Of a DNA stretch of 64,000 nucleotides, positions 19,705-34,594 are shown one piece after another; position 1 is the stretch's first letter, and each line of letters begins with the position of its first letter. Both the position numbers and the translations under genes were made by a program. Below the pieces are notes generated by a model, which did no database searches, was not told where the DNA came from, and worked only from the letters and a program-made list of their open reading frames with translations. Location of the stretch: assembly GCA_947652325.1 (NCBI GenBank), contig CANTCQ010000001.1:134725-198724 (forward strand). The letters run 5' to 3'. This stretch comes from an uncultured Mycoplasmatota bacterium. GTDB lineage: Bacteria; Bacillota_I; Bacilli_A; RF39; UBA660.

Positions 19705-20976
19705 CTATTTGCATTTTTTTATTAAAATTTTTTGAACAAAAAAGTTATCAATAACACTCGTTTCTTTTGAAAATGTATCACTATATTTTATGATATTTTG
19801 GAATATATAAAGACCCATTCCTCTATTATCTCCTTTACTACTAAAGCCTTTTTCTTCCATTCTATCTAAAGCGATATGTTTAAAAGTGTTGGCAAGTAGA
19901 AACACAATTGTTTCTTTTTCTTTATAAAAATGCAAACTTATCATTTTTTCGTTACTTTCTAAACTCGCTTCAATTGCATTGTCTAAAATAATGCCTAAAA
20001 GGGTGTATAAATCGTTTTTTTCTTTGCTCGTTAGAAAATCATCTTTTATTTTGGCGATTTCTTCTGAGATATAAATCTCTACATCAATTTTTAATTCTTT
20101 CATTTGTAATAATTTAAAATTAATTAGTCCTTTTGCTCCAGCAATTGGAATATTTTTAAGTTCAGATAACCACCTGTAATGATTTACTACTTTTTCTTCT
20201 AAAAGAGTGTCGATATATTTTTGTAGTTCTTTATTTTTTTTATCTGTAAGACTTTTTATAATAAGTAATTTATTTTTATATTCATGAACAAAGCTTTTGT
20301 ATTCTGTTAAAAGACCTTCCGTGAATTCGGAATATTCTACCATTTTGTTATAATTTTTTTCTAAATCGTTATTTTTCTCTTTTTCATGAAACAAAATAAA
20401 AACTAAATTAATAATAATAATAAATAAAAATAAATTCATATATAAGTGTAAATTTGAATGAATTTGGTAATGTGTTAGTCGAATTGATGTCACTAAAAAA
20501 AGTCCTATGTTGTTTAAAATTATTTTTGAGAGTAAACTTTTATTTTTATAAATATAGTGGATATTGATAATTTCTTTAATATAATTTTGAAAGATAAGTA
20601 CTGCCAAAAAACTAAGAATGGTTGTACATTTATTTAAAAAAAATAAAGAAGGGATAGGGATATGTAAAATTGTTAGGGTGATGTAAAAAAGAAGTTCAAA
20701 AATAAAACGAATCAAATATATCGTAATGATAATGGGAAGAATGGGTTGATTGTTTTTTCTAAACTCAAAAAAAACAAAAAGAAAACTTAATAAAATATAA
20801 ATAGCAAAAGATGTGAGTGGCTCTGAGTAGGTAAAGTTTATCATATATAAAAAAGCAAAAATGAAGATTCTAATAAAGGATATTCCATATTTTTTCTTAT
20901 GTTTTATTAGTAGGTGTGTCGTTAGAAAAATATAGGAAAAAATCCATAATCCCATACTATAACTATTCCAGTTCAT
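19705..20976 (-). CDS. AgrC/ComD-type (HPK10) membrane sensor histidine kinase
   Basis: N-terminal ~200 aa holds six to seven hydrophobic helices. C-terminal GHKL ATPase has N-box 'LGIILDNAIEA' and G-box 'SSKGDNRGMGL'. It overlaps the LytTR regulator gene by 14 nt. Confidence 0.85.
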   Translation of the reverse strand: MNWNSYSMGLWIFSYIFLTTHLLIKHKKKYGISFIRIFIFAFLYMINFTYSEPLTSFAIYILLSFLFVFFEFRKNNQPILPIIITIYLIRFIFELLFYITLTILHIPIPSLFFLNKCTTILSFLAVLIFQNYIKEIINIHYIYKNKSLLSKIILNNIGLFLVTSIRLTHYQIHSNLHLYMNLFLFIIIINLVFILFHEKEKNNDLEKNYNKMVEYSEFTEGLLTEYKSFVHEYKNKLLIIKSLTDKKNKELQKYIDTLLEEKVVNHYRWLSELKNIPIAGAKGLINFKLLQMKELKIDVEIYISEEIAKIKDDFLTSKEKNDLYTLLGIILDNAIEASLESNEKMISLHFYKEKETIVFLLANTFKHIALDRMEEKGFSSKGDNRGMGLYIFQNIIKYSDTFSKETSVIDNFFVQKILIKKCK

Positions 20977-21706
20977 AATTATTTTCCTTTTTTAATTTTT
21001 CTTTTAAGTCTTTTTTCTTATTTCTGGAAAGTAAGTCAGTTTTATAATTTTGAAAATAAATGCAATTGTTTGTGAAGTCTACTTTTTCAATATTTTTAAG
21101 ATTTACAATACAACTTTGATGTGTTTTAAAAAAATCAGGATTTGATAATAGTTCTGTTTCAATTTTTGTAATACTTTGTTTGAGTTTATATGCTTTTTTA
21201 GGGGTGATAATCGAAGTATAATTATGATTTAGGTCTTTTTCAAAAAACAGAATATCATGATAGGGGATTTGATAAAGTTCATTATTATAAATAAATTTAA
21301 AGGATTTATGTCGCGAATGAATTCGTAAAGCAACTACAATAGCTTCTTCAATTTTATCTTCTACATAATCTTTTTTTGTAATAAAATCAAGCATTAAAAT
21401 TTTACTTGTAAATCCTTCTTCTTTAAAACATTCATGAGAAGTTATCATTATCATTTGACTTTCCCAGTCACCAGCATCTCTTATTTCTCTTGCTAAATCT
21501 AATCCAGATTTTCCCGGGACTTCCATATCCAAAAGAAATATATTTTTTCCTAGTAAATCATCTAATTTCTTTTTGGCTTCTTTGGTGTATTTGTCAATGA
21601 TTAGGATTTGGTATTTATCTTCTTTGTGGCCTATTATATTTAATATGGCGTGTTTATAGTGTTCTTGCCATTTTTTATCATCTTCATAAATTATAAAATT
21701 AATCAT
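20963..21706 (-). CDS. LytTR-family response regulator (AgrA-like)
   Basis: Receiver domain ('IFLLDMEVPGKSGLDLAREIR') plus a C-terminal LytTR DNA-binding domain ('ILFFEKD...HQSCIVNLKNIEKVD'). Confidence 0.9.
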   Translation of the reverse strand: MINFIIYEDDKKWQEHYKHAILNIIGHKEDKYQILIIDKYTKEAKKKLDDLLGKNIFLLDMEVPGKSGLDLAREIRDAGDWESQMIMITSHECFKEEGFTSKILMLDFITKKDYVEDKIEEAIVVALRIHSRHKSFKFIYNNELYQIPYHDILFFEKDLNHNYTSIITPKKAYKLKQSITKIETELLSNPDFFKTHQSCIVNLKNIEKVDFTNNCIYFQNYKTDLLSRNKKKDLKEKLKKENNYELE

Positions 21707-22895: not shown

Positions 22896-22930
22896 TTGTA
22901 TAAAAATAAGATACTGATATTTTTATACAA
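22896..22930. promoter_or_regulatory. perfect 12-bp inverted repeat (candidate operator or 5'-UTR hairpin)
   Basis: TTGTATAAAAAT-N11-ATTTTTATACAA, directly upstream of the repeat-lipoprotein gene. Confidence 0.6.
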
Positions 22931-22959
22931 TGAAGGAAAAAGGAGATAGATTTTTAAAT

Positions 22960-25230
22960 ATGAAACAAGTAAAACATAAAAAAACTTTAAAGAATATATT
23001 GGGACAAGCTAAAGTGATGCTTGCTACAGTAGGACTTACTGGTTCTTTGGTAATGTCTGGTTGTGGATGTGGTGAAAAAAGAACTGAAGATATTTTTGCT
23101 CCAAGTTTAGAAGATTTAATTGATAAAGAAAATGCAAAACCTTTAGTAGAAAATGAAAAACTAATAGAAGAACAACAAACGAACAAAGAAAAAAAACAAC
23201 AAGATTTAAAAGAAGATATCAAAAGTAACAATACCATAGATTTATCAAATTATACGGGATATAGTTTAGATGAAGCTTTAGAGTCTATTGGATTAAAGCC
23301 TACACCAGAGCTTAAAGCAGAATTAGCAGCTTCTCTTGGAATTGATCCATACCTTAAAACAGCAGAACAAAATCTACTTATTTTACAAAGTTTAGGTGCT
23401 ACCATAAATGTTGGTGGTGTTGAACAACAAGTTATTATTAATGAAAATGGAGAGTTTATAGTTGTTCCAGTTGGGGAAGAAAAAAAGAAACAAGAAGAAA
23501 ATGAAATTGCTTCTAATAAAATCGAAACTCCAGAACGTCAAGACCCAGAAAAACTAGAAGATGACGTAAAACCTGTTATTGGTGGTAATGATAACAACGA
23601 TTCTGAAAATCAAAAACCAGGTAATAATGAAGATAAAGATAAAAATGATTCTGAAAATCAAAAACCAGGTAACAATGAAGATAAAGATAAAAATGATTCT
23701 GAAAATCAAAAACCAGGTAATGATGATACGAAACCGAACCCTGAAGACCATGAACATAAATATACCGAAGAAGTTCCAGGTACAAGAATAGCAAAGGCAA
23801 ATGGAGATGGAACACACAACGTATATGCTGATATGAAATGCCCAGAAGATGGAAGTATTCAAAAACAAGTATTAATAGAAAAAAATGTAGTGTGTAAACC
23901 TGGAACAGAAACGTTTACTGAAATAGTAAATGGAGTTGAATACGAATTTGAAATATGTGTAGATGGATGTGGAACAAAAGTTAATTATCGTGTAAAGAAA
24001 CCAGTTCATGACCATAAATATACTGAAGAAGTTCCAGGTACAAGAATAGTAAAGGCAAATGGAGATGGAACACACAACGTATATGCTGATATGAAATGCC
24101 CAGAAGATGGAAGTATTCAAAAACAAGTATTAATAGAAAAAAATGTAGTGTGTAAACCTGGAACAGAAACGTTTACTGAAATAGTAAATGGAGTTGAATA
24201 CGAATTTGAAATATGTGTAGATGGATGTGGAACAAAAGTTAATTATCGTGTAAAGAAACCAGACCATAACCATAAATATACTGAAGAAGTTCCAGGTACA
24301 AGAATAGCAAAGGCAAATGGAGATGGAACACACAACGTATATGCTGATATGAAATGCCCAGAAGATGGAAGTATTCAAAAACAAGTATTAATAGAAAAAA
24401 ATGTAGTGTGTAAACCTGGAACAGAAACGTTTACTGAAATAGTAAATGGAGTTGAATACGAATTTGAAATATGTGTAGATGGATGTGGAACAAAAGTTAA
24501 TTATCGTGTAAAGAAACCAGTTCATGACCATAAATATACTGAAGAAGTTCCAGGTACAAGAATAGTAAAGGCAAATGGAGATGGAACACACAACGTATAT
24601 GCTGATATGAAATGTCCAGAAGATGGAGATATTCAAAAACAAGTTGTTATTATTGAATCAGAACTTTGCGTATCTGATGGTAACATACATACAGTAACTA
24701 TAGGAGATGAAGTGTGGGAACAGGAGTTTTGTCCTCACTGTGGGTATTTAATTAGTTCTAAATTAGTACATAAACATGATTTTGTTTCTCAACCAATTGA
24801 AGGATGTATTGGTTCTTCCAAATTTTCATGCGGTTGTGGGGCAGAAAAAGATATAAATGTTGTTCCTCATGTTCCAGGTGCAGAAGAAATCACACAAATT
24901 GGAGATATGCTTGCTTATAGAATTGTTTGTATTAATTGTGGTTGGACGATTGAATCTGGTGTACGTCCAATTGATACAAATGATGAATTAGAAGCAAAAT
25001 GTGAGGCAATTATTCAACAATATAAAGATACTGAAGATAGCCAAACGAATACGATTGAGTCAAGTGATGGAAATGGGGACTCAATTCCAACAGGTGAAGT
25101 AATACAGATAGACGATGGTCAAGTGAATATGGAAGAAACAAGTAGTGGTAGTGAAGGTGGAGAGCCAGATGCTGAAGATTTAGAAGAAAGTGCTACTCTA
25201 TCTCGTATACTTTCTAGACCTAGGATTTAA
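22960..25230 (+). CDS. repeat-containing Cys/His-rich lipoprotein
   Basis: Signal peptide plus lipobox 'LTGSLVMSG-C'. Contains 3 x 16-aa 'NDSENQKPGNNEDKDK' and ~3.5 x 86-aa units with four Cys and an HxH motif each. The C-terminal part has 'CPHCG', 'SCGCG' and 'CINCG', then an acidic tail. GGAGA precedes ATG 22960; the ORF opens at 22930. Confidence 0.8.
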   Translation: MKQVKHKKTLKNILGQAKVMLATVGLTGSLVMSGCGCGEKRTEDIFAPSLEDLIDKENAKPLVENEKLIEEQQTNKEKKQQDLKEDIKSNNTIDLSNYTGYSLDEALESIGLKPTPELKAELAASLGIDPYLKTAEQNLLILQSLGATINVGGVEQQVIINENGEFIVVPVGEEKKKQEENEIASNKIETPERQDPEKLEDDVKPVIGGNDNNDSENQKPGNNEDKDKNDSENQKPGNNEDKDKNDSENQKPGNDDTKPNPEDHEHKYTEEVPGTRIAKANGDGTHNVYADMKCPEDGSIQKQVLIEKNVVCKPGTETFTEIVNGVEYEFEICVDGCGTKVNYRVKKPVHDHKYTEEVPGTRIVKANGDGTHNVYADMKCPEDGSIQKQVLIEKNVVCKPGTETFTEIVNGVEYEFEICVDGCGTKVNYRVKKPDHNHKYTEEVPGTRIAKANGDGTHNVYADMKCPEDGSIQKQVLIEKNVVCKPGTETFTEIVNGVEYEFEICVDGCGTKVNYRVKKPVHDHKYTEEVPGTRIVKANGDGTHNVYADMKCPEDGDIQKQVVIIESELCVSDGNIHTVTIGDEVWEQEFCPHCGYLISSKLVHKHDFVSQPIEGCIGSSKFSCGCGAEKDINVVPHVPGAEEITQIGDMLAYRIVCINCGWTIESGVRPIDTNDELEAKCEAIIQQYKDTEDSQTNTIESSDGNGDSIPTGEVIQIDDGQVNMEETSSGSEGGEPDAEDLEESATLSRILSRPRI
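23596..23727 (+). repeat. 48-bp in-frame tandem repeat (2.7 copies)
   Basis: Units start at 23596, 23644 and 23692 and differ by 1-2 nt. Confidence 0.9.
23749..24645 (+). repeat. 258-bp in-frame tandem repeat (~3.5 near-identical copies)
   Basis: The landmark CATAAATAT recurs at 23755, 24013, 24271 and 24529, an exact 258-bp period. Only a handful of substitutions separate the units. Confidence 0.95.
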
Positions 25231-25261: not shown

Positions 25262-25900
25262 ATGAAAGTGGTGAAAGAAATGAAAAAGGGAAATAAATGG
25301 TATCATTCATTTAGTAATTGGCTTATCATTATTGCCTGTGTAATACTAGTTCCTATGTTGGTAATGAATTTAAGTATTATGTTTCAAGCTAAAACAAAAA
25401 AAGATGTTGTTCCAAGTATATTTGGAATAAAACCTTTCATCGTTTTATCTGGTTCAATGGAAACAGAAATACATAAAGGAGATATGATATTAACCAAAAT
25501 AGTTGACCCTGCATCGTTAGGAGTAGATGATGTTATTGCTTTTCGAGATGCAGAAGGAACTGTTACTACGCACCGGGTTATTGATGTTGTGGTAGAAAAT
25601 GGAGAAACATTTTTTATTACAAAAGGTGATAACAATAGTACCCAAGATAAAAATTTGGTAGAACTTAGTGACGTAGAAGGTTTATATATAGGTAGAATTC
25701 CAGGAATTGGTTCTATGATGGATAGCTTATCAGAACCAACAACAATTATTATTGTTGTTTTAGGAATTACCATGATATTTGTAATTGGTTTCTCTATTTC
25801 TAATAAGAAACAAAGAGAAATTGAAAGAAAAGAATTCTTAGAATACAAAAAAAGAAAAGAATTGGAAGAAAAGAATTCTGAAAATAAAAGTAAGTCTTAG
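25262..25900 (+). CDS. sipW: SipW-type (archaeal/ER-type, S26B) signal peptidase I, copy 1
   Basis: N-terminal TM, 'LSGSMETEIHKGD' (catalytic Ser), 'TTHRVID' (catalytic His), 'ITKGDNNSTQD', a second TM and a basic tail. Confidence 0.85.
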   Translation: MKVVKEMKKGNKWYHSFSNWLIIIACVILVPMLVMNLSIMFQAKTKKDVVPSIFGIKPFIVLSGSMETEIHKGDMILTKIVDPASLGVDDVIAFRDAEGTVTTHRVIDVVVENGETFFITKGDNNSTQDKNLVELSDVEGLYIGRIPGIGSMMDSLSEPTTIIIVVLGITMIFVIGFSISNKKQREIERKEFLEYKKRKELEEKNSENKSKS

Positions 25901-26030: not shown

Positions 26031-26720
26031 ATGAAAAAGAAAATGATGGTACTAGGTGGTTTATTAATGGCTGTTGCAATTACAGGTTATTCAGTAAGTG
26101 GAACTTATGCTAAATATATCTCAGCTTTAGATACTATTACTGATAGTGCTAGAGTTGCTAAATTTAGTTTTAAGTTACAAGATAAAGACGGTGCTGATTG
26201 GACAGATACTACAACAGTTGATTTATTTAAAACTGCTTATAATAATAATGCAATTCAAAGTGCTGATACTGATAAAGTTATAGGTCCAGGAGCAACTGGT
26301 GAATATACTTTTACTATTAATGGTACAGCAGAAACTGCTTATACAGTAAAAATTGCAGCAGAAGCTACAGACAAAGATGGAAATGCTATTAATTCAGATT
26401 TAGCAGACCAAATTAAGTTTACTTTAACTAAAAATGGTACAGCTGTTAGCGGTGTAGAAAAAGTTTCTTTAGCTACTTTAGTTGCTGAATTAAATAAAAC
26501 TGATGGAAGTGCAATCGTTGCTGCCAATACAGCATTAAATGACACTTACAAAATTAATTGGGAGTGGGCATTTGATGATGCATCTGCTACAAAAGATGAA
26601 GTAACTAATGCTAATAACCAAAAAGATACAGGATTAGGTTCAAAAGAAACATTAGATACAATTAAATTAACTATCGATGTTACAGTTGCACAATCTGCAA
26701 CTGCTCCAACAATGCCTTAA
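26031..26720 (+). CDS. TasA/camelysin-like secreted protein, putative major fibre subunit
   Basis: Strong GGGGAGGTG RBS. Signal 'MKKKMMVLGGLLMAVAITGYSVSGTYAKYIS' resembles the SipW-cognate class. 'IGPGATGEYTFTI', 'WEWAFD', and a C-terminal 'LTIDVTVAQ'. Confidence 0.65.
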   Translation: MKKKMMVLGGLLMAVAITGYSVSGTYAKYISALDTITDSARVAKFSFKLQDKDGADWTDTTTVDLFKTAYNNNAIQSADTDKVIGPGATGEYTFTINGTAETAYTVKIAAEATDKDGNAINSDLADQIKFTLTKNGTAVSGVEKVSLATLVAELNKTDGSAIVAANTALNDTYKINWEWAFDDASATKDEVTNANNQKDTGLGSKETLDTIKLTIDVTVAQSATAPTMP

Positions 26721-26846: not shown

Positions 26847-29800
26847 ATGAAGAATTTTTTGAATGAGTTTGCTAGTAAAAAAGATGTTACTTCTGATGAG
26901 AAAAGAAAAAGAAGAATTATTCTTTATATTATCATTATCATCATTATTCTTTTATTAATTACGAGTTGTAGCTGTACATCTAAGTTTTTTGGGAAAATTG
27001 GAGATTTATTTCGCGGAGAAAGCAATTATACAATTGACAATACACAAGATAATCAAGAAATAATAAAAAATAAAGAATTGCAATTTGATACAGATAATAC
27101 TGAGATGTCTCTTAGTGATTCAAGTACTAAAATTAGTTTTTCTTATAAAAATATTAATCCTGGAGGATTTACTTGTTCTACTAGTGATGCTGAAGTTGCT
27201 ACTTGTTATGTTGCCAATAATTATGTAGTGGTAATTCCCAAAAAAATTGGAGATATTACAGTTTATTTACAAACGACTACGAATGGTAAAACATATGAAG
27301 CAAGTACAAAAGTTAGTATTAAAGATATAAATAGAGCAATTGAGTTAGAAAGCAATAGTGGTACATTTAATTTAAAGAAAATGCAAGAATTAAACGTAGT
27401 TTATCGACTTGTTGGATTAGTAGGAAATGTTACTGTGTCTTCTAGTGATGAAAAAATAGCGATTGCTACTGCAAATGATGGTATTTTAAGTATAAAAGGA
27501 CTAAAAGTAGGAGAAGTAATTTTTACATTATCCCTTACTTATAATGACCGAGTTTATACTAATACATACACTGTAAAAGTAATAAACGGTATAAATACAG
27601 GAAATTCTACTAATACAAAACCAGGAGATAGTTCAAATAATATAGAAAAACCAAGTGAAATACCAAATCCAGGAGAAGATAAACCGCCAGTTGTTTTAGA
27701 TGGTGATAGTACTTTAAGAAGTTTAACAACTAATAAAGGAACACTTTTATTTGATAAAAATACTTATTCTTATTATATTGGACTTAGTGCTTGGAACTGG
27801 AAAATTTCTTTAAAAGCACAACCTACAAGTACAAAGGCAAAACTTTCTTATACTTATAATGGTGTAACCGTTTCTTCCTTAGAAAAACTAAAATTAAATA
27901 CGGGAGATAATAAAGTAGTAATTACAGTAACAGCTGAGAATGGTTCTACAAGTATATATGAAGTGGTTGTAAATAAGGCAAAGTCTAGTCAAAATTATTT
28001 GAAAAGTCTTACTACTTCTTTAGGAACTTTGGAACCAAAGTTTAATAAAAATATACTTAGTTATGATATTCGTGTAGGGTATGACAAAGAAAGTTTAGAT
28101 TTAATAGCTAAACCAAAAAGTAAAAAAGCTGCAATTACTTATATTTATAATGGAAAAATTGTAGCAGATTTAAATCATCTTTCTTTAAATACAGGTGATA
28201 ATTTTGTTCAAATTATTGTAACGGCTGAGAATGGAGTTTCTAGAACATATTCAGTTGTTATTAATCGTGAAGTAGCCCCTGGTGTCAAAGATAGTAATAG
28301 TTTATTAAAAAATTTAACAATTTCTAATGGAACTTTAGCATTTGATCCTTATGTGAATCGTTATATGATAGGTGTTTCTACTAATACTTCTGTTGTTTCT
28401 CTAAAAGCAATACCAAGTAGTAAAAAAGCAAGTGTAACTTATACTTTTAATAATATGCCAGTAGAGAATTTAGATAATTTAAATCTACGAATTGGAGATA
28501 ATACAGTTGTTGTTACAGTTATAGCAGAAGATGGAAGTAAAACCGATTATACAGTAGTTATTAATCGGGCAACACCAAGTAAAGAGAATTCCTTGAAAGA
28601 ATTAACAACAAATAAAGGAATACTTACTCCAATATTTGATGAAAATACGCTGGCTTATGAAATTTATGTTGATAGAAAAGAAGAAAACATTACTTTAACA
28701 GCAAGTCTGGCCAATCAAAATGCTTCTATGTTTTATACTTTAGATGGAACAAGTGTAAATAGTTTAACCAATCTTCCTTTAAAACCTGGTAAAAATGTGG
28801 TTAACATTCATGTTGTAAGCGAAGAGGGCATAACTAGAACATATGAAGTTGTAATTTATAGAGAAGTAGACACTTCAAAAAGTAAAGATAGTGCATTATC
28901 AAAAATAGAGGTTTTAAATAATGTAGGTTTACTATCTCCACAATTTAATAAAGATATAACAGAATATGTAGTTGATGTAAAAGCAGACATAGAAAAAATT
29001 TCTTTCGAAGCAGCGCTAAATGATGAAAAAGCAAGTGGAATGCAATTTATGTATAATGGAAAAAAAGTAACTTCTATTTTAGATTTGCCTCTTGTTACAG
29101 GAAATCAAAATGTACTTGTAATTACAGGTATAGCAGAAGATGGTGTTACACAAACTGATTATAAAATCATTATTAATAAAGCGTCTGATCCAGATAAGTC
29201 TAATAATAATCTTTTATCTAATTTAGAAATTAGCAATGTGAATAAGGGAATACTTACCCCAGCATTTTCTCCAAAAATAGATGAGTATAAAGTTTTAGTT
29301 TCAGCAAGTGATAATAAAATAGATCTAAAAGGAACACCTGCAAATAATAAAGCAGAGTTATCTTATACTTATACAAATAAAGATGGAGAAGAAGTAACAG
29401 TAGAAAATGGAACAAATATTTTCTTAAGGCCTGGTGACAATAAAATCGTAATTACGGTTGTAGCGGAAGATGGAACTCCAAAAAATTATACAGTGACAGT
29501 TTACAAACCTGTATACACTGTTGTTGTAAATGTTTTAGATACTTATTATGTAGAAGAAGCACCATTTCAAGTTTCTTATATAGTAAAAGATGAAATGGGT
29601 CAAGCGACAACAGATTATAAAATAGAAGATATTACAACAAATTTATCTTTATTTAATGACCTATTTAGTTTAGACACAACAGTTAAAGGAATTATTACTT
29701 TAACTCCAAAAACAGATAGATTACAAGAATTAGTGGATCAAAATGTTGATATAACGGTTACGTATAATCAAGACAGAAAAGATACCAAAACATTACATTT

Positions 29801-31037
29801 TGCTACACGTCCTGGCTATTATTTAAAAACACAAAATGAAATATATACAGTTACTTTGAATAAAGATAAACATTCTTTTTGGGATATTGTTTTAAATACC
29901 AACTTTTTTGTCAAAGATGTTAAATCAGTACCAGTTGCAAATGGAATACATTTATATACAGAAGGAAATGAAAATGTTTCCATTGATATCGTGGATATTA
30001 CGGAAGGTACTAAAATTATAGATTTAGTTTCAGGAGATTTATCATCTGTTAATTCTTTAACCATTCGTGCTAATTTAAAAAATGTAGGAACGGCTAAAGT
30101 ACATGTTAAAGGAATATATTATGGAAAAATAATTGAATTTGATATTTTAATTGCGATTACAGAAAAATATTCAGTTACGATTTCTGCAGGAGAAGGTTTC
30201 TTTGATGCGTTACTAACAGAATATAAATATGAATATGAACGTGGTACAAAAATAGATTTGGCAAATTATATTCCTTATAAAGTAGATGAAACAGAAAATT
30301 GTAAATACTTTACTCTAGATTATTATCAAGATAAAGAAGGAAACAAATACCAACAAACGGATGTTGTAGAAGTAACAAAAGAACTTGTTTTAACGGCTGT
30401 TTACAAACAAACTTCTGAAATTGTAGATATAAAAGATAAAGGAAAATATTATTTAGAAAATTTAGATATATTTAATAATGAAAGATTTTTAAATAATGAA
30501 AAAGTTATTCATCCTGGAGTAAGTGGAGAACATAGAATAACACTTACAAATAATTTGGCAAGTAAAATCATAATTACTGGAATGACGTTAGAAGAGGATA
30601 CTATTTGTATTCAAGAAGGAAATATTAAGGGTTGTATTAATATGGAATATGCTCTTAAAAGAACGGATTTAAGTACTACTGATATTTATTATTATCCAGG
30701 AAGTGATAAAAGTGGATATACTATTTTAAATCGAGATGCCAATCGAAATGAAGTGAACAATTATCGTGATTTAGATAAACAATATACCCTTCGAACTTTA
30801 AAATTTAAAGATGAAGGTAAAGAAAATATTGAGTTATCTAAAGGAGAAACAGTTGAATTATTTCTACTATGGAGATGGTCTTTTGAAGGTGTCGATGATC
30901 AGTTAGATACAAAGATTGGTGAATATGTTGAAAAACAATTTGCAGAAAAAAAGATTAATGAAATGTATCATTTGTTGATTGGTTTTGATTATGAAATAGA
31001 AAATACATATTGTAAAAAACAAGTAGATACGAATTAA
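26847..31037 (+). CDS. giant surface protein: N-terminal TM/signal, 2 Big_2-like domains, 6 cadherin-like beta-sandwich repeats, C-terminal TasA-like domain
   Basis: AGGAGGGG RBS before ATG 26847. 'ILYIIIIIIILLLITSCSCTSKFF' anchor. Six ~100-aa repeats of the type 'L+sLttn.GtL.P.F..n...Y.i.V......i.l.a.p....a......g.......l.l..G.N.v.I.V.AEdG....Y.v.I'. The C-terminal ~200 aa has 'IHPGVSGEHRITL' and 'WRWSFEG'. Confidence 0.85.
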   Translation: MKNFLNEFASKKDVTSDEKRKRRIILYIIIIIIILLLITSCSCTSKFFGKIGDLFRGESNYTIDNTQDNQEIIKNKELQFDTDNTEMSLSDSSTKISFSYKNINPGGFTCSTSDAEVATCYVANNYVVVIPKKIGDITVYLQTTTNGKTYEASTKVSIKDINRAIELESNSGTFNLKKMQELNVVYRLVGLVGNVTVSSSDEKIAIATANDGILSIKGLKVGEVIFTLSLTYNDRVYTNTYTVKVINGINTGNSTNTKPGDSSNNIEKPSEIPNPGEDKPPVVLDGDSTLRSLTTNKGTLLFDKNTYSYYIGLSAWNWKISLKAQPTSTKAKLSYTYNGVTVSSLEKLKLNTGDNKVVITVTAENGSTSIYEVVVNKAKSSQNYLKSLTTSLGTLEPKFNKNILSYDIRVGYDKESLDLIAKPKSKKAAITYIYNGKIVADLNHLSLNTGDNFVQIIVTAENGVSRTYSVVINREVAPGVKDSNSLLKNLTISNGTLAFDPYVNRYMIGVSTNTSVVSLKAIPSSKKASVTYTFNNMPVENLDNLNLRIGDNTVVVTVIAEDGSKTDYTVVINRATPSKENSLKELTTNKGILTPIFDENTLAYEIYVDRKEENITLTASLANQNASMFYTLDGTSVNSLTNLPLKPGKNVVNIHVVSEEGITRTYEVVIYREVDTSKSKDSALSKIEVLNNVGLLSPQFNKDITEYVVDVKADIEKISFEAALNDEKASGMQFMYNGKKVTSILDLPLVTGNQNVLVITGIAEDGVTQTDYKIIINKASDPDKSNNNLLSNLEISNVNKGILTPAFSPKIDEYKVLVSASDNKIDLKGTPANNKAELSYTYTNKDGEEVTVENGTNIFLRPGDNKIVITVVAEDGTPKNYTVTVYKPVYTVVVNVLDTYYVEEAPFQVSYIVKDEMGQATTDYKIEDITTNLSLFNDLFSLDTTVKGIITLTPKTDRLQELVDQNVDITVTYNQDRKDTKTLHFATRPGYYLKTQNEIYTVTLNKDKHSFWDIVLNTNFFVKDVKSVPVANGIHLYTEGNENVSIDIVDITEGTKIIDLVSGDLSSVNSLTIRANLKNVGTAKVHVKGIYYGKIIEFDILIAITEKYSVTISAGEGFFDALLTEYKYEYERGTKIDLANYIPYKVDETENCKYFTLDYYQDKEGNKYQQTDVVEVTKELVLTAVYKQTSEIVDIKDKGKYYLENLDIFNNERFLNNEKVIHPGVSGEHRITLTNNLASKIIITGMTLEEDTICIQEGNIKGCINMEYALKRTDLSTTDIYYYPGSDKSGYTILNRDANRNEVNNYRDLDKQYTLRTLKFKDEGKENIELSKGETVELFLLWRWSFEGVDDQLDTKIGEYVEKQFAEKKINEMYHLLIGFDYEIENTYCKKQVDTN

Positions 31038-31049
31038 AGGGGTTAAAAA

Positions 31050-31793
31050 ATGAAGGTTATAAAAAGGATATTTTTTATCATTGCAACAGTAGTATTGTTC
31101 TTTCTTTTCTTATTTAACTTTTATACATTTTTTTGTATAAAAATAGCAAAACAAGACTTAGCTACCATTAATGGATATGCTTTATTAGAAGTTGTATCGG
31201 GGTCAATGGAACCTATTATTCATATCGGAGATATGATTGTAATTGATACAAAAACTACTCATTATCAAGAAAACGATATTGTTACATTTTATGATGTGAA
31301 TGGCTCTTTTGTAACTCACAGAATTCTTTCTATAAAAGGGGAAGACATGATTACAAAAGGAGATAATAACAATAGTGAAGATGAATCCATTCCACTAAAA
31401 AATATAGTTGGAAAATATGTTTTTAAAGTAAATGGCCTTGGAAAAATACTTGCTTCTTTTAAAAGTCCCTTCGTGATGATTATGATTTTAATAATTGGTT
31501 TTATGGTTTGTTTCTTAATTAGCACAGATAAAGAGGGAAAACCCATTTTAACACAAGAAGAAAAAGAGTTTCAAGAATTTATAAAAAATAAAGAAAAGAA
31601 ATTAAACGAAAGTAAAAATGATGTAAAAATAAAACAGACTAATGTGAAAAATGTAGATGAAGAAGATAAAAGAGTTGCGAAAAAAGTACAAGAATCAAAA
31701 ACAAGTCTTAAGACAAAAAGTTTTGTACCAAAAAAGAAACTAAATAAAATGTCTACTAAAAAAAGAAAAAATAATAAAAAGAAAAGTAGGTGA
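31050..31793 (+). CDS. sipW: SipW-type signal peptidase I, copy 2, with long Lys-rich tail
   Basis: 'VVSGSMEPIIHIGD', 'VTHRILS', 'ITKGDNNNSED', a second TM, and a ~90-aa highly basic C-terminal extension. Confidence 0.85.
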   Translation: MKVIKRIFFIIATVVLFFLFLFNFYTFFCIKIAKQDLATINGYALLEVVSGSMEPIIHIGDMIVIDTKTTHYQENDIVTFYDVNGSFVTHRILSIKGEDMITKGDNNNSEDESIPLKNIVGKYVFKVNGLGKILASFKSPFVMIMILIIGFMVCFLISTDKEGKPILTQEEKEFQEFIKNKEKKLNESKNDVKIKQTNVKNVDEEDKRVAKKVQESKTSLKTKSFVPKKKLNKMSTKKRKNNKKKSR

Positions 31794-32428
31794 ATATCGT
31801 GAATGAATTATTACATAGTAAAAGATTTAGGGCAAATTTATATAAATGGCTGTGTATGTATGTAGGGGTTATGTTATTACTTACTACTGTAATAACTTAT
31901 TCAAGATATATGACCAAATTGCAAATTTCTGATGATGTAAGAACTGCTAAATTTGATGTAAAAGTAAAAGGAATAGAACAAATGTGTCCAGGGACTTCTT
32001 CTACTTGTAATAGTGGTGCGTATTTGGTAGGTAATCAAATGAATTATTATTTTACAGTTGACCCTAAAGAATTGGAAGTACGTGCAGAAGTTTCTAGATT
32101 GATTATTCAAATAAAAAATAATTTTCGAATTCAAAAAATTGAAAATGTAAAAATAAGTACCAATGTGGATGGTGTTCCAATTGAAGAAATAACAAAAACA
32201 ATTTGTGATTCTACTACATCTAATACTTGTTTAGGTACAGAAAGTAAAGCTACGGGAACCTATACTTATTCATTAAAAGAACCAGTTTTATTAGACCTTT
32301 CGAATAAAGAGGCCATAAATTATAAAATAACCCTCTTATATGTTGGAGATGCAATAACAAATCCCGAAGGAATCTATATTGATAAAATGATAACCGTTGA
32401 TTATACAGTACAACAAAAAACAAAATAA
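31790..32428 (+). CDS. TasA-like minor secreted protein (212 aa)
   Basis: GTG start overlapping the sipW-2 stop (GTGA). N-terminus 'VGVMLLLTTVITYSRYMTKLQISDDVRTAKFDVKV' aligns with the 26031 protein ('GTYAKYISALDTITDSARVAKFSFKL'). Ends 'ITVDYTVQQ'. Confidence 0.65.
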   Translation: MNIVNELLHSKRFRANLYKWLCMYVGVMLLLTTVITYSRYMTKLQISDDVRTAKFDVKVKGIEQMCPGTSSTCNSGAYLVGNQMNYYFTVDPKELEVRAEVSRLIIQIKNNFRIQKIENVKISTNVDGVPIEEITKTICDSTTSNTCLGTESKATGTYTYSLKEPVLLDLSNKEAINYKITLLYVGDAITNPEGIYIDKMITVDYTVQQKTK

Positions 32429-32443: not shown

Positions 32444-34594
32444 ATGAAAAAAGAAAAAAAATTCTACAAAAAAGTAGAATATCATCGAAAAATTGGTCAA
32501 GCTATTGCAAGCACATTATTCGTACTCGGAATAGCAGCGATGTCGGTTTTTCCAGAGTCTCACTCTAAATATATTACGAGTGGTCAGGTGGAGTTGGGAA
32601 GTGCTACTTTGTATCCAAAAGAACAAGGTACATTGACAAAAGATAATTTTAAATTATTAGGTTCCAAAGATACCGCACCGCCACCGGGTACGAATTATAA
32701 TTCAGATGAAACATATGCATTTATAAAAGTTTCTTTTACTAAAAATTCTGTAGATGAAATTATTGGAGATAGTCATGATTATGTGGTAAAAACTCCAACT
32801 TGTAATATAGTATATGTGAATGGTACAAAGATAAGTGGAAGTGTTAAAGAATATACAATTCCTTCTATAGGAAAAGAAAATCAAGTAATAATGAAGTGTA
32901 GTGTTAAAAACAATACACAAGGAAATAATTTAAAAGCTTCCATTCAAATTGAGGAAACTATTAAGGATACTACTTTTACTTATAAGACGGGTGAATTTAT
33001 AGAATCAATTGATTCCTATAAAGATAAATATTCATCGGATATTCCAGTACCAGAGCCCGAAATAGTAAAAACTAAAGAATATATTAGTATTCCAACTGTT
33101 TTTATAAATGAAGATTCTACATATAGTACAGAATTTGTTAGTTGGTTGGATATGATAGTAGATGATGCGAGTTATGATGAAACCGTAAAACAAAATATTA
33201 AAAGTTATATTCGAAATTCTTATAGTAATTTGGCTTCTCTTAAGAGTGACCAAAGTTTACCAAGTATCAAGTTTTATCATCCAAATACAGAAGGAAATAA
33301 AGAAGATGTATATAAACTAGAAATTATTAGAGAAAATTTAGTAGGATATGCTAAAACATATCAAAATCATATGGCAAATCCAAATCTCATGTATTTTTCG
33401 AGTATGGATTCAAAAATCGTTCAAGATGCTTTTATTTATTATTTAACACATTATAAATATCCAATAAAAGATGATGCTCAATTAGTTTTAGATTATGTAG
33501 ATTTAATGAGCGAACATAAAGGGCTATCTTATTTAATGGAAACGGATGAGCTTGGAAATTTAAAATATGAAATTCCAGGAATAAAATATGAGCCTGAGGG
33601 ACAGAAAGTTACATTAGAAGATACTTTATTGATTTTTGCTTATACTAAAATTAATTCAATTATAAAGTTATCTTATGATAATCCTTATGTAGCACTTACA
33701 GGATATGATGAAATGTTGAGAAAAATTTTCAAATTTGAAAAGTATGAAATTGATATTCTTGAAGGTAATGATATCTTAAATCTTATTCTTATGAAACCTA
33801 CAGAAAAATTTAATAAATTCTTTGTTTATAATGCTGTTGATACAGAAAATTCAAATAGTAGTTATTTGCTTGTTCATATGTATTCTGATGATTTGTCTTC
33901 CTTATTTATTGAAGTTACTAAGGTACCATTTGAGAAGACAACGAATACCTTAACTCTTACAGTAGATATTACAAATTACAAAACAACAGAGATTACAGAT
34001 TTAACTTCTGCTGTAGAAAGTTTATTTAATGATAAAAAAGTTGAATTTACAATACAAGATGAAAGTGATAAAAAGACCATTGTTTATACAGTTACAGATA
34101 AGGTAACTGGTGATGAGATAGTTGATAATACAGATTCTATTTTAGATTTGAATGAAAATGTTTTATCTAACACAAATGTTCAACCACCAAAGGTTTTGGA
34201 TGGAGCTAATACAAATAAAAATGATAGCAATGGTACAAATACTACTAAAAAAGTGGATAAGAGTGAAGAAAATTTCCAAACTGTAAATTCTGATAATAAA
34301 ACAGAACAAGAAGATAAAAAAGTAAAAGAAGAAAATTCTGTTAAAATTTCAAATAGTGAAACAGATAATGTAGTTAATGCGAATGTTTCTAATAAAATGA
34401 ATGTATCTAATGATAATCAAGAAGAAACTTTAGATTTAGATACCAAAGTAGAAAATGTAAATACTGTTAATACAACTTCTCAAATAAATATTGGAGCTCC
34501 TCCAGTGATAGGGGATAATGTAACTCCTGATATAGGAATAGAAGAGGTTGCTAGCGGATTTATAAATTTCATTGAACCTGTAGCAACAGGATAA
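32444..34594 (+). CDS. large secreted protein (716 aa) with the same signal motif and an N/T-rich low-complexity tail
   Basis: AGGAGG RBS. 'LFVLGIAAMSVFPESHSKYITSG' signal-like N-terminus. No LPXTG sorting signal. Confidence 0.7.
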   Translation: MKKEKKFYKKVEYHRKIGQAIASTLFVLGIAAMSVFPESHSKYITSGQVELGSATLYPKEQGTLTKDNFKLLGSKDTAPPPGTNYNSDETYAFIKVSFTKNSVDEIIGDSHDYVVKTPTCNIVYVNGTKISGSVKEYTIPSIGKENQVIMKCSVKNNTQGNNLKASIQIEETIKDTTFTYKTGEFIESIDSYKDKYSSDIPVPEPEIVKTKEYISIPTVFINEDSTYSTEFVSWLDMIVDDASYDETVKQNIKSYIRNSYSNLASLKSDQSLPSIKFYHPNTEGNKEDVYKLEIIRENLVGYAKTYQNHMANPNLMYFSSMDSKIVQDAFIYYLTHYKYPIKDDAQLVLDYVDLMSEHKGLSYLMETDELGNLKYEIPGIKYEPEGQKVTLEDTLLIFAYTKINSIIKLSYDNPYVALTGYDEMLRKIFKFEKYEIDILEGNDILNLILMKPTEKFNKFFVYNAVDTENSNSSYLLVHMYSDDLSSLFIEVTKVPFEKTTNTLTLTVDITNYKTTEITDLTSAVESLFNDKKVEFTIQDESDKKTIVYTVTDKVTGDEIVDNTDSILDLNENVLSNTNVQPPKVLDGANTNKNDSNGTNTTKKVDKSEENFQTVNSDNKTEQEDKKVKEENSVKISNSETDNVVNANVSNKMNVSNDNQEETLDLDTKVENVNTVNTTSQINIGAPPVIGDNVTPDIGIEEVASGFINFIEPVATG

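Follow-up and report, generated by a model that had tools for sequence, protein, structure and literature searches.

In the TasA fibre of Bacillus subtilis, each subunit completes the next one with a donor strand, its mature N-terminus (residues 28-38, with F29), and is modelled to free that strand only once its own groove has been filled, with TapA giving the first strand (PMC9674648). TapA acts by strand complementation and promotes TasA assembly (PMC9674648, PMC10151520). In the scheme for the haloarchaeal tafi, TafC forms a tip with donor strand and adhesin, TafE is the adaptor, TafA the shaft, TafF the anchor and TafD the peptidase, where TafF is a membrane protein whose subunit-like domain is proposed to take the last donor strand (PMC11821415). 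In bacterial AbpX fibres, an aromatic residue at mature position 2 clamps the strand, and the loci code for anchors of the SLH or LPXTG kind, which AlphaFold 3 predicts to enter the fibre through strand complementation, as well as for minor subunits and tip proteins (bioRxiv 10.64898/2026.01.04.697558). LPXTG-bearing BsaB homologues of Clostridium perfringens have been speculated to anchor BsaA, and heteropolymeric fibres of the TasA family have been suggested from operon content (PMC11580942). Here we describe a gene cassette in a stretch of 64,000 nucleotides (nt) from an uncultured Mycoplasmatota bacterium (assembly GCA_947652325.1, contig CANTCQ010000001.1, positions 134,725-198,724 of the forward strand; hereafter the window), in which a protein of 1396 amino acids (aa), termed here the giant, ends in a module homologous to a small 229-aa protein encoded just upstream. 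On balance, we favour a reading of the giant as an acceptor-only terminator and anchor of a TasA-like fibre, for which the cell-proximal end is likelier than the role of a distal adhesin.

Homology between the giant and the small subunit

The last 208 codons of the giant (30411-31034) are homologous to the core of the 229-aa protein, as the original prediction, made from the letters of the window, had proposed for its last ~200 aa. In a BLASTP comparison the two regions match over just 24 residues, around 'KVIxPGxxGE' (E 0.002 for a single comparison), which is too weak when taken alone. A hidden Markov model (HMM) of 114 subunit homologues finds giant residues 1206-1370 at 27.8 bits and E 8e-10 (HMM positions 74-215), the reverse profile from 96 C-terminal domains finds the 229-aa protein at E 7e-10, and profile-profile comparison of the two families with hhalign, a check suggested together with the prediction, gives a probability of 96.8% and E 2.4e-10. 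With a relaxed mact setting, hhalign pairs module residues 6-204 with subunit residues 46-229; identity is ~18%. Scored in isolation the module reaches 34.9 bits, and the best of 2000 shuffles 10.6. The reciprocal matches, the hhalign result and the shuffle control together confirm the homology, which ties the module to the subunit by sequence profiles and not by fold search.

The residues common to both proteins are those invariant in both families, namely the F of 'DLF', P-G..G, W.W and D..DT.(I/L)G. Two of the three motif pairings first put forward, DIF..KVIHPGVSGE with DLF..KVIGPGATGE and WRWSF..DDQLDTKIG with WEWAF..QKDTGLG, are borne out; for the third, in the last beta-strand, the collinear order of secondary structure in the AlphaFold2 (AF2) models agrees, but the register is given at low alignment confidence only. 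The AF2 model of the module has a mean predicted local distance difference test score (pLDDT) of 82.0 and runs through strands and helices in the same order as the 229-aa model. A scan of one genome per species gave 80 related loci, and among their 3567 open reading frames (ORFs) the subunit HMM matches nothing beyond subunits, C-termini of giants, equivalents of gene 2 and paralogues of a 212-aa protein described below. It detects 17 of 56 giant C-termini at E <1e-3, and the match always ends 7-25 residues before the stop.

In total, seven plus-strand genes fill the window from 22.9 to 34.6 kilobases. They and their main parts are as follows, in window coordinates.

22930-25230, plus strand: 766-aa repeat protein with a lipobox-like N-terminus
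25262-25900, plus strand: sipW1, first gene of the conserved cassette (TIGR02228 91 bits; SipW model E 5e-30)
26031-26720, plus strand: 229-aa small subunit, signal peptide 1-27 followed by the jelly-roll core
26112-26162, plus strand: putative donor strand K28-K44 of the small subunit (KYISALDTITDSARVAK)
26847-31037, plus strand: giant protein of 1396 aa, counted from the ATG at 26847 (the ORF opens at TTG 26787)
26847-27011, plus strand: N-terminus of the giant, with K/R-rich stretch, poly-Ile/Leu helix, I38-T39-S40-C41 and 'KFFGKIGDLF'
27717-29510, plus strand: six cadherin-like beta-sandwich repeats of the giant (aa 291-888; PF12733)
30411-31037, plus strand: C-terminal subunit-like jelly-roll module of the giant by profile homology (aa 1189-1396 and stop)
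31050-31793, plus strand: sipW2, second SipW-type signal peptidase (TIGR02228 82.6 bits)
31790-32428, plus strand: 212-aa paralogue of the small subunit, with cleavage-site and putative donor-strand motif (TYSRYMTKLQISDDVRTAKF)
32444-34594, plus strand: 716-aa protein, last conserved cassette gene, with the cleavage-site motif 'SHSKY' only

Outside the two peptidases and the PF12733 repeats, no protein or segment of the cluster matches Pfam or NCBIfam; for the 229-aa, 212-aa and 716-aa proteins and the module of the giant this holds at relaxed thresholds too.

A subunit core without the putative donor segment

The 114 homologues of the 229-aa protein are all unnamed, and none carries a Pfam domain. 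Its signal peptide ends in 'SGTYA' and the mature protein is predicted to begin with K28-Y29. Conservation in the family is highest in the stretch K28-K44: T25, A27, Y29 and A40 never vary, and K28, R41, V42 and A43 are each kept in at least 90% of members. This stretch is also the least structured part of the subunit in the AF2 monomer model, where residues 21-40 score only 42-52 against an overall pLDDT of 76.6. The aromatic residue at mature position 2 (Y29) matches F29 of TasA and W2 of AbpX, and an N-terminal donor-strand motif directly after the cleavage site, a trait of the TasA superfamily, is found at the motif level as 'GTYA/KY' (here and below, the slash marks the cut). K28-K44 would then be the donor strand of the small subunit. 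Our reading is that the 229-aa protein forms the shaft of a fibre and represents a family of its own in the TasA superfamily, with copies presumably joined by strand exchange. An isopeptide lock as in BsaA was considered and dropped: K28 and D199 of the subunit are conserved, but its E101 is not aligned with the invariant E62 of the module.

The module keeps the core motifs of the subunit and carries neither the signal peptide nor the K28-K44 segment, its alignment beginning only at subunit residue 46. Searched with an HMM built on residues 22-52 of the subunit, the 229-aa protein gives 50.6 bits, the 212-aa protein E 2.6e-5 and the 716-aa protein a marginal E 0.11, and nothing is matched anywhere in the giant even at E 100. 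Judged by its sequence, the module is a subunit core without the donor segment. It could accept a strand but would not pass one on, and it therefore fits a terminal position in a fibre. Of the two positions originally suggested for the giant, copolymerisation within the fibre has become unlikely in light of the donor-segment HMM, while a subunit-like module on a large repeat protein fits well with a role at a fibre end.

The family of the 212-aa protein aligns with the subunit family at an hhalign probability of 96.3% (E 1.6e-9), mainly through the N-terminal motif, and is devoid of the core motifs PG..G, W.W and D..DT.G; by this alignment the 212-aa protein is a true paralogue of the subunit, and a candidate minor or adaptor subunit. 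The 716-aa family shares only the 'S.SKY' site with the subunit family, a likeness that is not significant, and shows no significant similarity to the subunit core (hhalign probability 4%) and no Pfam match. That it acts as tip or nucleator is speculative and the weakest part of the model.

Anchor, stalk and gene order

A word-indexed homologue search with the last 208 residues of the giant returned only the giant itself; the module family was found by scoring every protein among 1.84 billion representatives. In total, 104 representatives carry the module (70 of them at E <=1e-10), and nearly all are 650-1700 aa long with the module at the extreme C-terminus. An N-terminal region is common to 83 of 86 long homologues and consists of a K/R-rich stretch, about 14 Ile/Leu residues, 'L-(L/I)-T-S-C' and 'F-(F/W)-G-(K/R)-I-G'. 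The giant fits the lipobox pattern [LVI][ASTVI][GAS]C, with L37-I38-T39-S40-C41 after the K/R-rich stretch and the poly-Ile/Leu helix, and a lipobox-like pattern is found in 80 of the 83 homologues; the giant may well be lipidated at this site. Beyond the conserved Cys by 3-5 residues lies the motif 'F-(F/W)-G-(K/R)-I-G-x-(L/I/F)-F' (giant aa 46-55, window 26982-27011; homologues P0116-P0218), whose two glycines ('F[FW]G[KR]IG') are present in all 83 homologues.

Between anchor and module, the cadherin-like nature of the repeats was rightly recognised at the outset (PF12733, E 8.7e-59; six repeats at aa 291-888, with borders from jackhmmer on the giant itself), whereas the Ig-like repeats also predicted were not recovered, no Pfam Ig family being matched in the remaining parts of the giant. 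The six repeats presumably form a stalk. Across the family its length ranges from 0 to ~1500 residues, and the repeats resemble a variable-length insertion placed between anchor and module. The window also encodes alanine racemase, an M23 peptidase, a DacA-like carboxypeptidase, an LCP transferase and EzrA. These wall genes indicate a walled member of the Bacillota and make a stalk that spans the cell wall plausible.

The 80 loci come mostly from metagenome-assembled genomes (MAGs) of uncultured 'Bacilli', 'Tenericutes' or 'Mollicutes' of the mouse, rabbit and human gut, where the cassette is widespread, and some from Oscillospiraceae and Ruminococcus. The recurring order is sipW1, small subunit (once or twice), giant, sipW2 and 212-aa paralogue: nearly all related loci have sipW1 immediately before the small subunit, and the position of sipW2 directly after the giant gene is likewise conserved. 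Homologues of the 716-aa protein follow downstream in 54 of 80 loci. The two SipW paralogues are kept as a pair in nearly all related loci, one before subunit and giant, the other before the 212-aa and 716-aa proteins.

The gene that immediately follows the subunit was sorted into classes over 76 loci. In 54 it encodes a lipobox-type protein with the C-terminal module, and in five more the N-terminus is of the lipobox type and the module undetected, with an ORF that reaches or nearly reaches the contig end in each. Six Clostridia-type loci (L058, L059, L072, L074, L076 and L078, from Ruminococcus, Oscillospiraceae and Acutalibacteraceae MAGs and one labelled Porphyromonadaceae) hold instead a subunit-like protein of 270-350 aa with a SipW-type signal and, at its end, 'PxTGD', a hydrophobic helix and a basic tail, that is, a sortase-type signal. 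These proteins match the subunit HMM only from about position 50 onwards, with up to 60 bits, and have no donor motif; their sortase-type signal is a pattern match, the Pfam family Gram_pos_anchor being weak at E 0.11, and no sortase gene (TLxTC motif) was found in the 80 loci. Lipobox-type and sortase-type anchors never occur on the same protein, and the giant, which ends in '...YCKKQVDTN' with the module running to the last residues, has no sortase-type C-terminal signal. A minimal form of 203 aa in locus L071 (10640-11248) consists of a helix, 'RIGKIG' and the module. Because of these classes and the minimal form, the slot appears always to encode a subunit core without donor motif, combined with some cell anchor.

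This pattern bears on the role first preferred for the giant, in which it is freed from the membrane, its module caps the outer end of the fibre and its repeats act as a distal tip adhesin. FimH and PapG, the two-domain adhesins of chaperone-usher pili, have an acceptor-only pilin domain and sit at the tip, and the module resembles that domain. Cadherin-like repeats (PF12733) are common in adhesins, and 'SCTS/KFFG' could be a signal-peptidase site, with the second SipW encoded next door. We nevertheless consider a tip adhesin unlikely. The Cys after the helix stands in a lipobox-like context in nearly all homologues, the same slot in the Clostridial loci encodes a wall-anchored protein of the sortase type, and the minimal form lacks any adhesin part; the 716-aa protein, because of its donor-type N-terminus, is the better tip candidate. 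What had been taken for a distal adhesin looks like a cell anchor.

Proposed assembly and its alternatives

The link to TasA was sought by structure and by family. The only Foldseek match of the 229-aa model below 1e-3 in the PDB is the TasA fibre 8AUR, determined by cryo-electron microscopy (E 1.1e-5, probability 1.00). A dedicated signal peptidase of the SipW/archaeal type, another trait of the TasA superfamily, is encoded in two copies, both above the cut-off of 51.85 bits for TIGR02228 (archaeal/SipW-type signal peptidase I).

For the fibre itself we infer strand complementation, polarity, lipidation and the roles of both peptidases and of the 212-aa and 716-aa proteins, and the assembly would run as follows. 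The 229-aa shaft subunit would be secreted and cut after 'GTYA' by a SipW-type peptidase, and its newly exposed N-terminus, K28-K44, would enter the core jelly roll of the following subunit as a donor strand. The first shaft subunit may be filled by a starter that bears a donor motif (the 716-aa protein, the 212-aa protein or both), whereupon further subunits would add at the end bearing a free donor strand. The acceptor-only module of the giant would take the last strand, so that growth stops and the fibre is tethered to the cell. The giant would be held in the membrane by its N-terminal anchor of the lipoprotein type, and its long stalk may bring the point of attachment beyond the wall. The 212-aa and 716-aa proteins, which have a cleavage-site or donor motif and no core motifs, would be candidates for adaptor and tip or nucleator at the opposite end. 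A wider account, which we put forward tentatively and hold to be somewhat less than an even chance, is that gut Bacilli, and Clostridia in a shorter form, build an unannotated TasA-superfamily fibre from a fixed cassette of two SipW peptidases, a shaft subunit, a donor-only adaptor and a tip protein; the lipoprotein stalk of 0 to ~1500 residues with its acceptor-only module would set the distance from the cell at which the fibre starts and replace the sortase anchor of the relatives.

A number of observations weigh against the reading of the giant as anchor of a TasA-like fibre. The match of the 229-aa model to 8AUR has a TM-score of only 0.38. PF12389 (Peptidase_M73) is matched by neither the 229-aa protein nor the module, even at E up to 10, and hhalign against 111 TasA/CalY sequences, collected with a TasA query that was checked against 8AUR, is not significant (probability 0.6% for the subunit and 0.07% for the module). 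Foldseek with the module model finds only generic jelly rolls at E 1e-3 or worse, lectin-like and capsid folds included, with no TasA and no specific relative among them. That model also begins, near its N-terminus, with a long strand (residues 2-14) by which the groove could be filled in cis, as residues 48-61 of TasA self-complement the groove in the monomer (PMC9674648). Three cysteines, C66, C75 and C201 (30606-30608, 30633-30635 and 31011-31013), are invariant in the module family and absent from the small subunit, and C66 and C75 flank a hairpin insertion ('TIC...GC(L/I)NMGY') that the subunit does not have. The conserved Cys of the N-terminus might, instead of a lipobox, be part of a simple membrane anchor or of a site cut by SipW2, the anchor reading does not account for the invariant 'FFGKIG' motif, and all related sequences derive from MAGs.

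The alignment of the 212-aa family with TasA/CalY by hhalign is not significant either, and a search of PDB sequences with the subunit-family profile gave chance matches to ryanodine receptors only, TasA being absent. In the non-significant TasA/CalY alignments, the cleavage site, the PG motif and a terminal 'ATQ' strand fall in the same order. Among the weak Foldseek matches of the subunit, TLP-1a and TLP-1b were set aside, since the name refers to fibrils from pond water (Tsinghua Lotus Pond) and does not stand for 'TasA-like proteins'. The term 'TasA-type' used in the original prediction is apt only at the level of the superfamily, and not at that of the TasA family, where neither PF12389 nor a significant family alignment was found.

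Some of the same observations feed a second explanation, in which the giant is an independent adhesin and its module, a paralogue with the subunit fold, was recruited as a jelly roll that binds a ligand or Ca and has no contact to the fibre. The generic jelly rolls in the fold search, the extra cysteines and hairpin and the low identity to the subunit are what such a recruitment would leave. It is nonetheless an improbable account in our view: in 54 loci the gene is found strictly between those for the subunit and SipW2, the residues that are shared are the invariant motifs PG..G, W.W and D..DT.G of the subunit family, and recruitment hardly explains why the donor segment alone was lost or why a sortase-anchored, subunit-like protein takes the place of the giant in other lineages. 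A third possibility, that the membrane-held module binds donor strands transiently, in the manner of chaperones or nucleators such as TapA or CapP, and is no stable part of the fibre, would echo the part of TapA in TasA assembly through strand complementation (PMC9674648, PMC10151520), and in the minimal 203-aa forms, though only there, the module is near the site where subunits would emerge. It is quite improbable, as TapA donates a strand and the module can only accept one, a stalk of ~1150 residues puts the module far from the membrane where subunits emerge, and a stalk length of 0 to ~1500 residues suits a spacer better than a catalytic geometry.

Flanking genes and side observations

Upstream of the cassette, the 766-aa protein begins with a lipobox-like 'VMSGC' and contains 3.5 tandem repeats of 258 nt (86 aa), Cys/His-rich and 97% identical, as well as 48-nt repeats (23586-23726 and 23749-24644). 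Its relatives lie upstream of sipW1 in 22 of 80 loci, and it is a possible member of the system. Next to the cluster, on its upstream side, the minus strand (19705-21706) codes for a histidine kinase of the AgrC type and a response regulator of the AgrA type, both possible regulators; two-component systems have been reported close to other loci of the TasA superfamily. At 700-2550 on the plus strand, a large serine recombinase (Ccr/XisF-like, E 1e-42) may mark the boundary of a mobile element. Behind the 716-aa gene come rimP, nusA and infB, and the G+C content of the window is ~28%. In a further ENA contig (L081, 2561-6750) the giant gene is called as two ORFs of 1057 and 259 aa. A genuine split was considered and rejected, with 99.55% identity to the window, four gap openings and ~5x coverage making an assembly error likely.

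Significance and comparison with known systems

Among the structural proteins of the cassette only the cadherin-like repeats of the giant have a Pfam match, and no source-given name was found where these proteins were looked up. If the proposed role of the giant is right, the cassette gives a testable account of how fibres that do not depend on sortase are fastened to a Gram-positive cell. It would also offer a natural series of anchors on one acceptor module, from a sortase signal through a bare membrane helix to a long-stalk lipoprotein, and a signature, the subunit core without donor strand, by which terminal subunits may be spotted in other TasA-like systems. The TasA superfamily would be extended to a family that current profile libraries miss.

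Compared with TasA, TapA and SipW of B. subtilis, the cassette has in common a predicted secreted jelly-roll subunit beside a SipW-type peptidase and a presumed accessory protein at one fibre end, and the cleavage motif GGTWA/AF of TasA is near-identical to SGTYA/KY of the 229-aa protein. The accessory proteins differ, since TapA donates the first strand and the strandless module of the giant could only accept one. The cassette further departs from the TasA system in its two SipW paralogues, its additional subunit paralogues and its 1396-aa putative anchor.

The FimH and PapG adhesins are alike in that they join a domain of the subunit fold, lacking a donor strand of its own, to a functional extension, so that this domain is restricted to one fibre end. 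They are unrelated in sequence, need a chaperone and an outer-membrane usher, and sit at the distal tip, whereas the cell-proximal end is suggested for the giant. General Pfam and NCBIfam scans of the cluster genes gave no chaperone or usher family, although no search was aimed at them.

The closest organisation is that of the tafi, where TafC, TafE, TafA and TafF map one-to-one onto the 716-aa protein, the 212-aa protein, the 229-aa protein and the giant. The tafi are archaeal and secreted by the twin-arginine translocation (Tat) pathway, and TafF has its subunit-like region at the N-terminus and its membrane span at the C-terminus, with no repeat stalk. The tafi model too rests largely on AlphaFold, and it is compared with the cassette here by organisation, not by sequence. 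The AbpX and BsaB loci likewise combine a dedicated signal peptidase, minor subunits, a tip protein and an anchor predicted to join by strand complementation, and the Clostridial relatives of the cassette have such sortase-type anchors. In the giant, by contrast, the anchor is N-terminal and of the lipobox type, up to ~1500 residues of repeats precede the C-terminal module, and a sortase signal is lacking.

The original prediction knew of no such arrangement in TasA-type systems. Full-text literature searches indeed gave none, but TafF, the anchors of the AbpX loci and BsaB are partial precedents, and the principle of a subunit-like anchor in a strand-complemented fibre is not new. What this cassette adds is an unannotated family missed by current profile libraries, the opposite anchor topology, in which the lipobox is N-terminal and the module closes the protein at its C-terminal end, up to ~1500 residues of stalk between the two, and a fixed pair of SipW paralogues.

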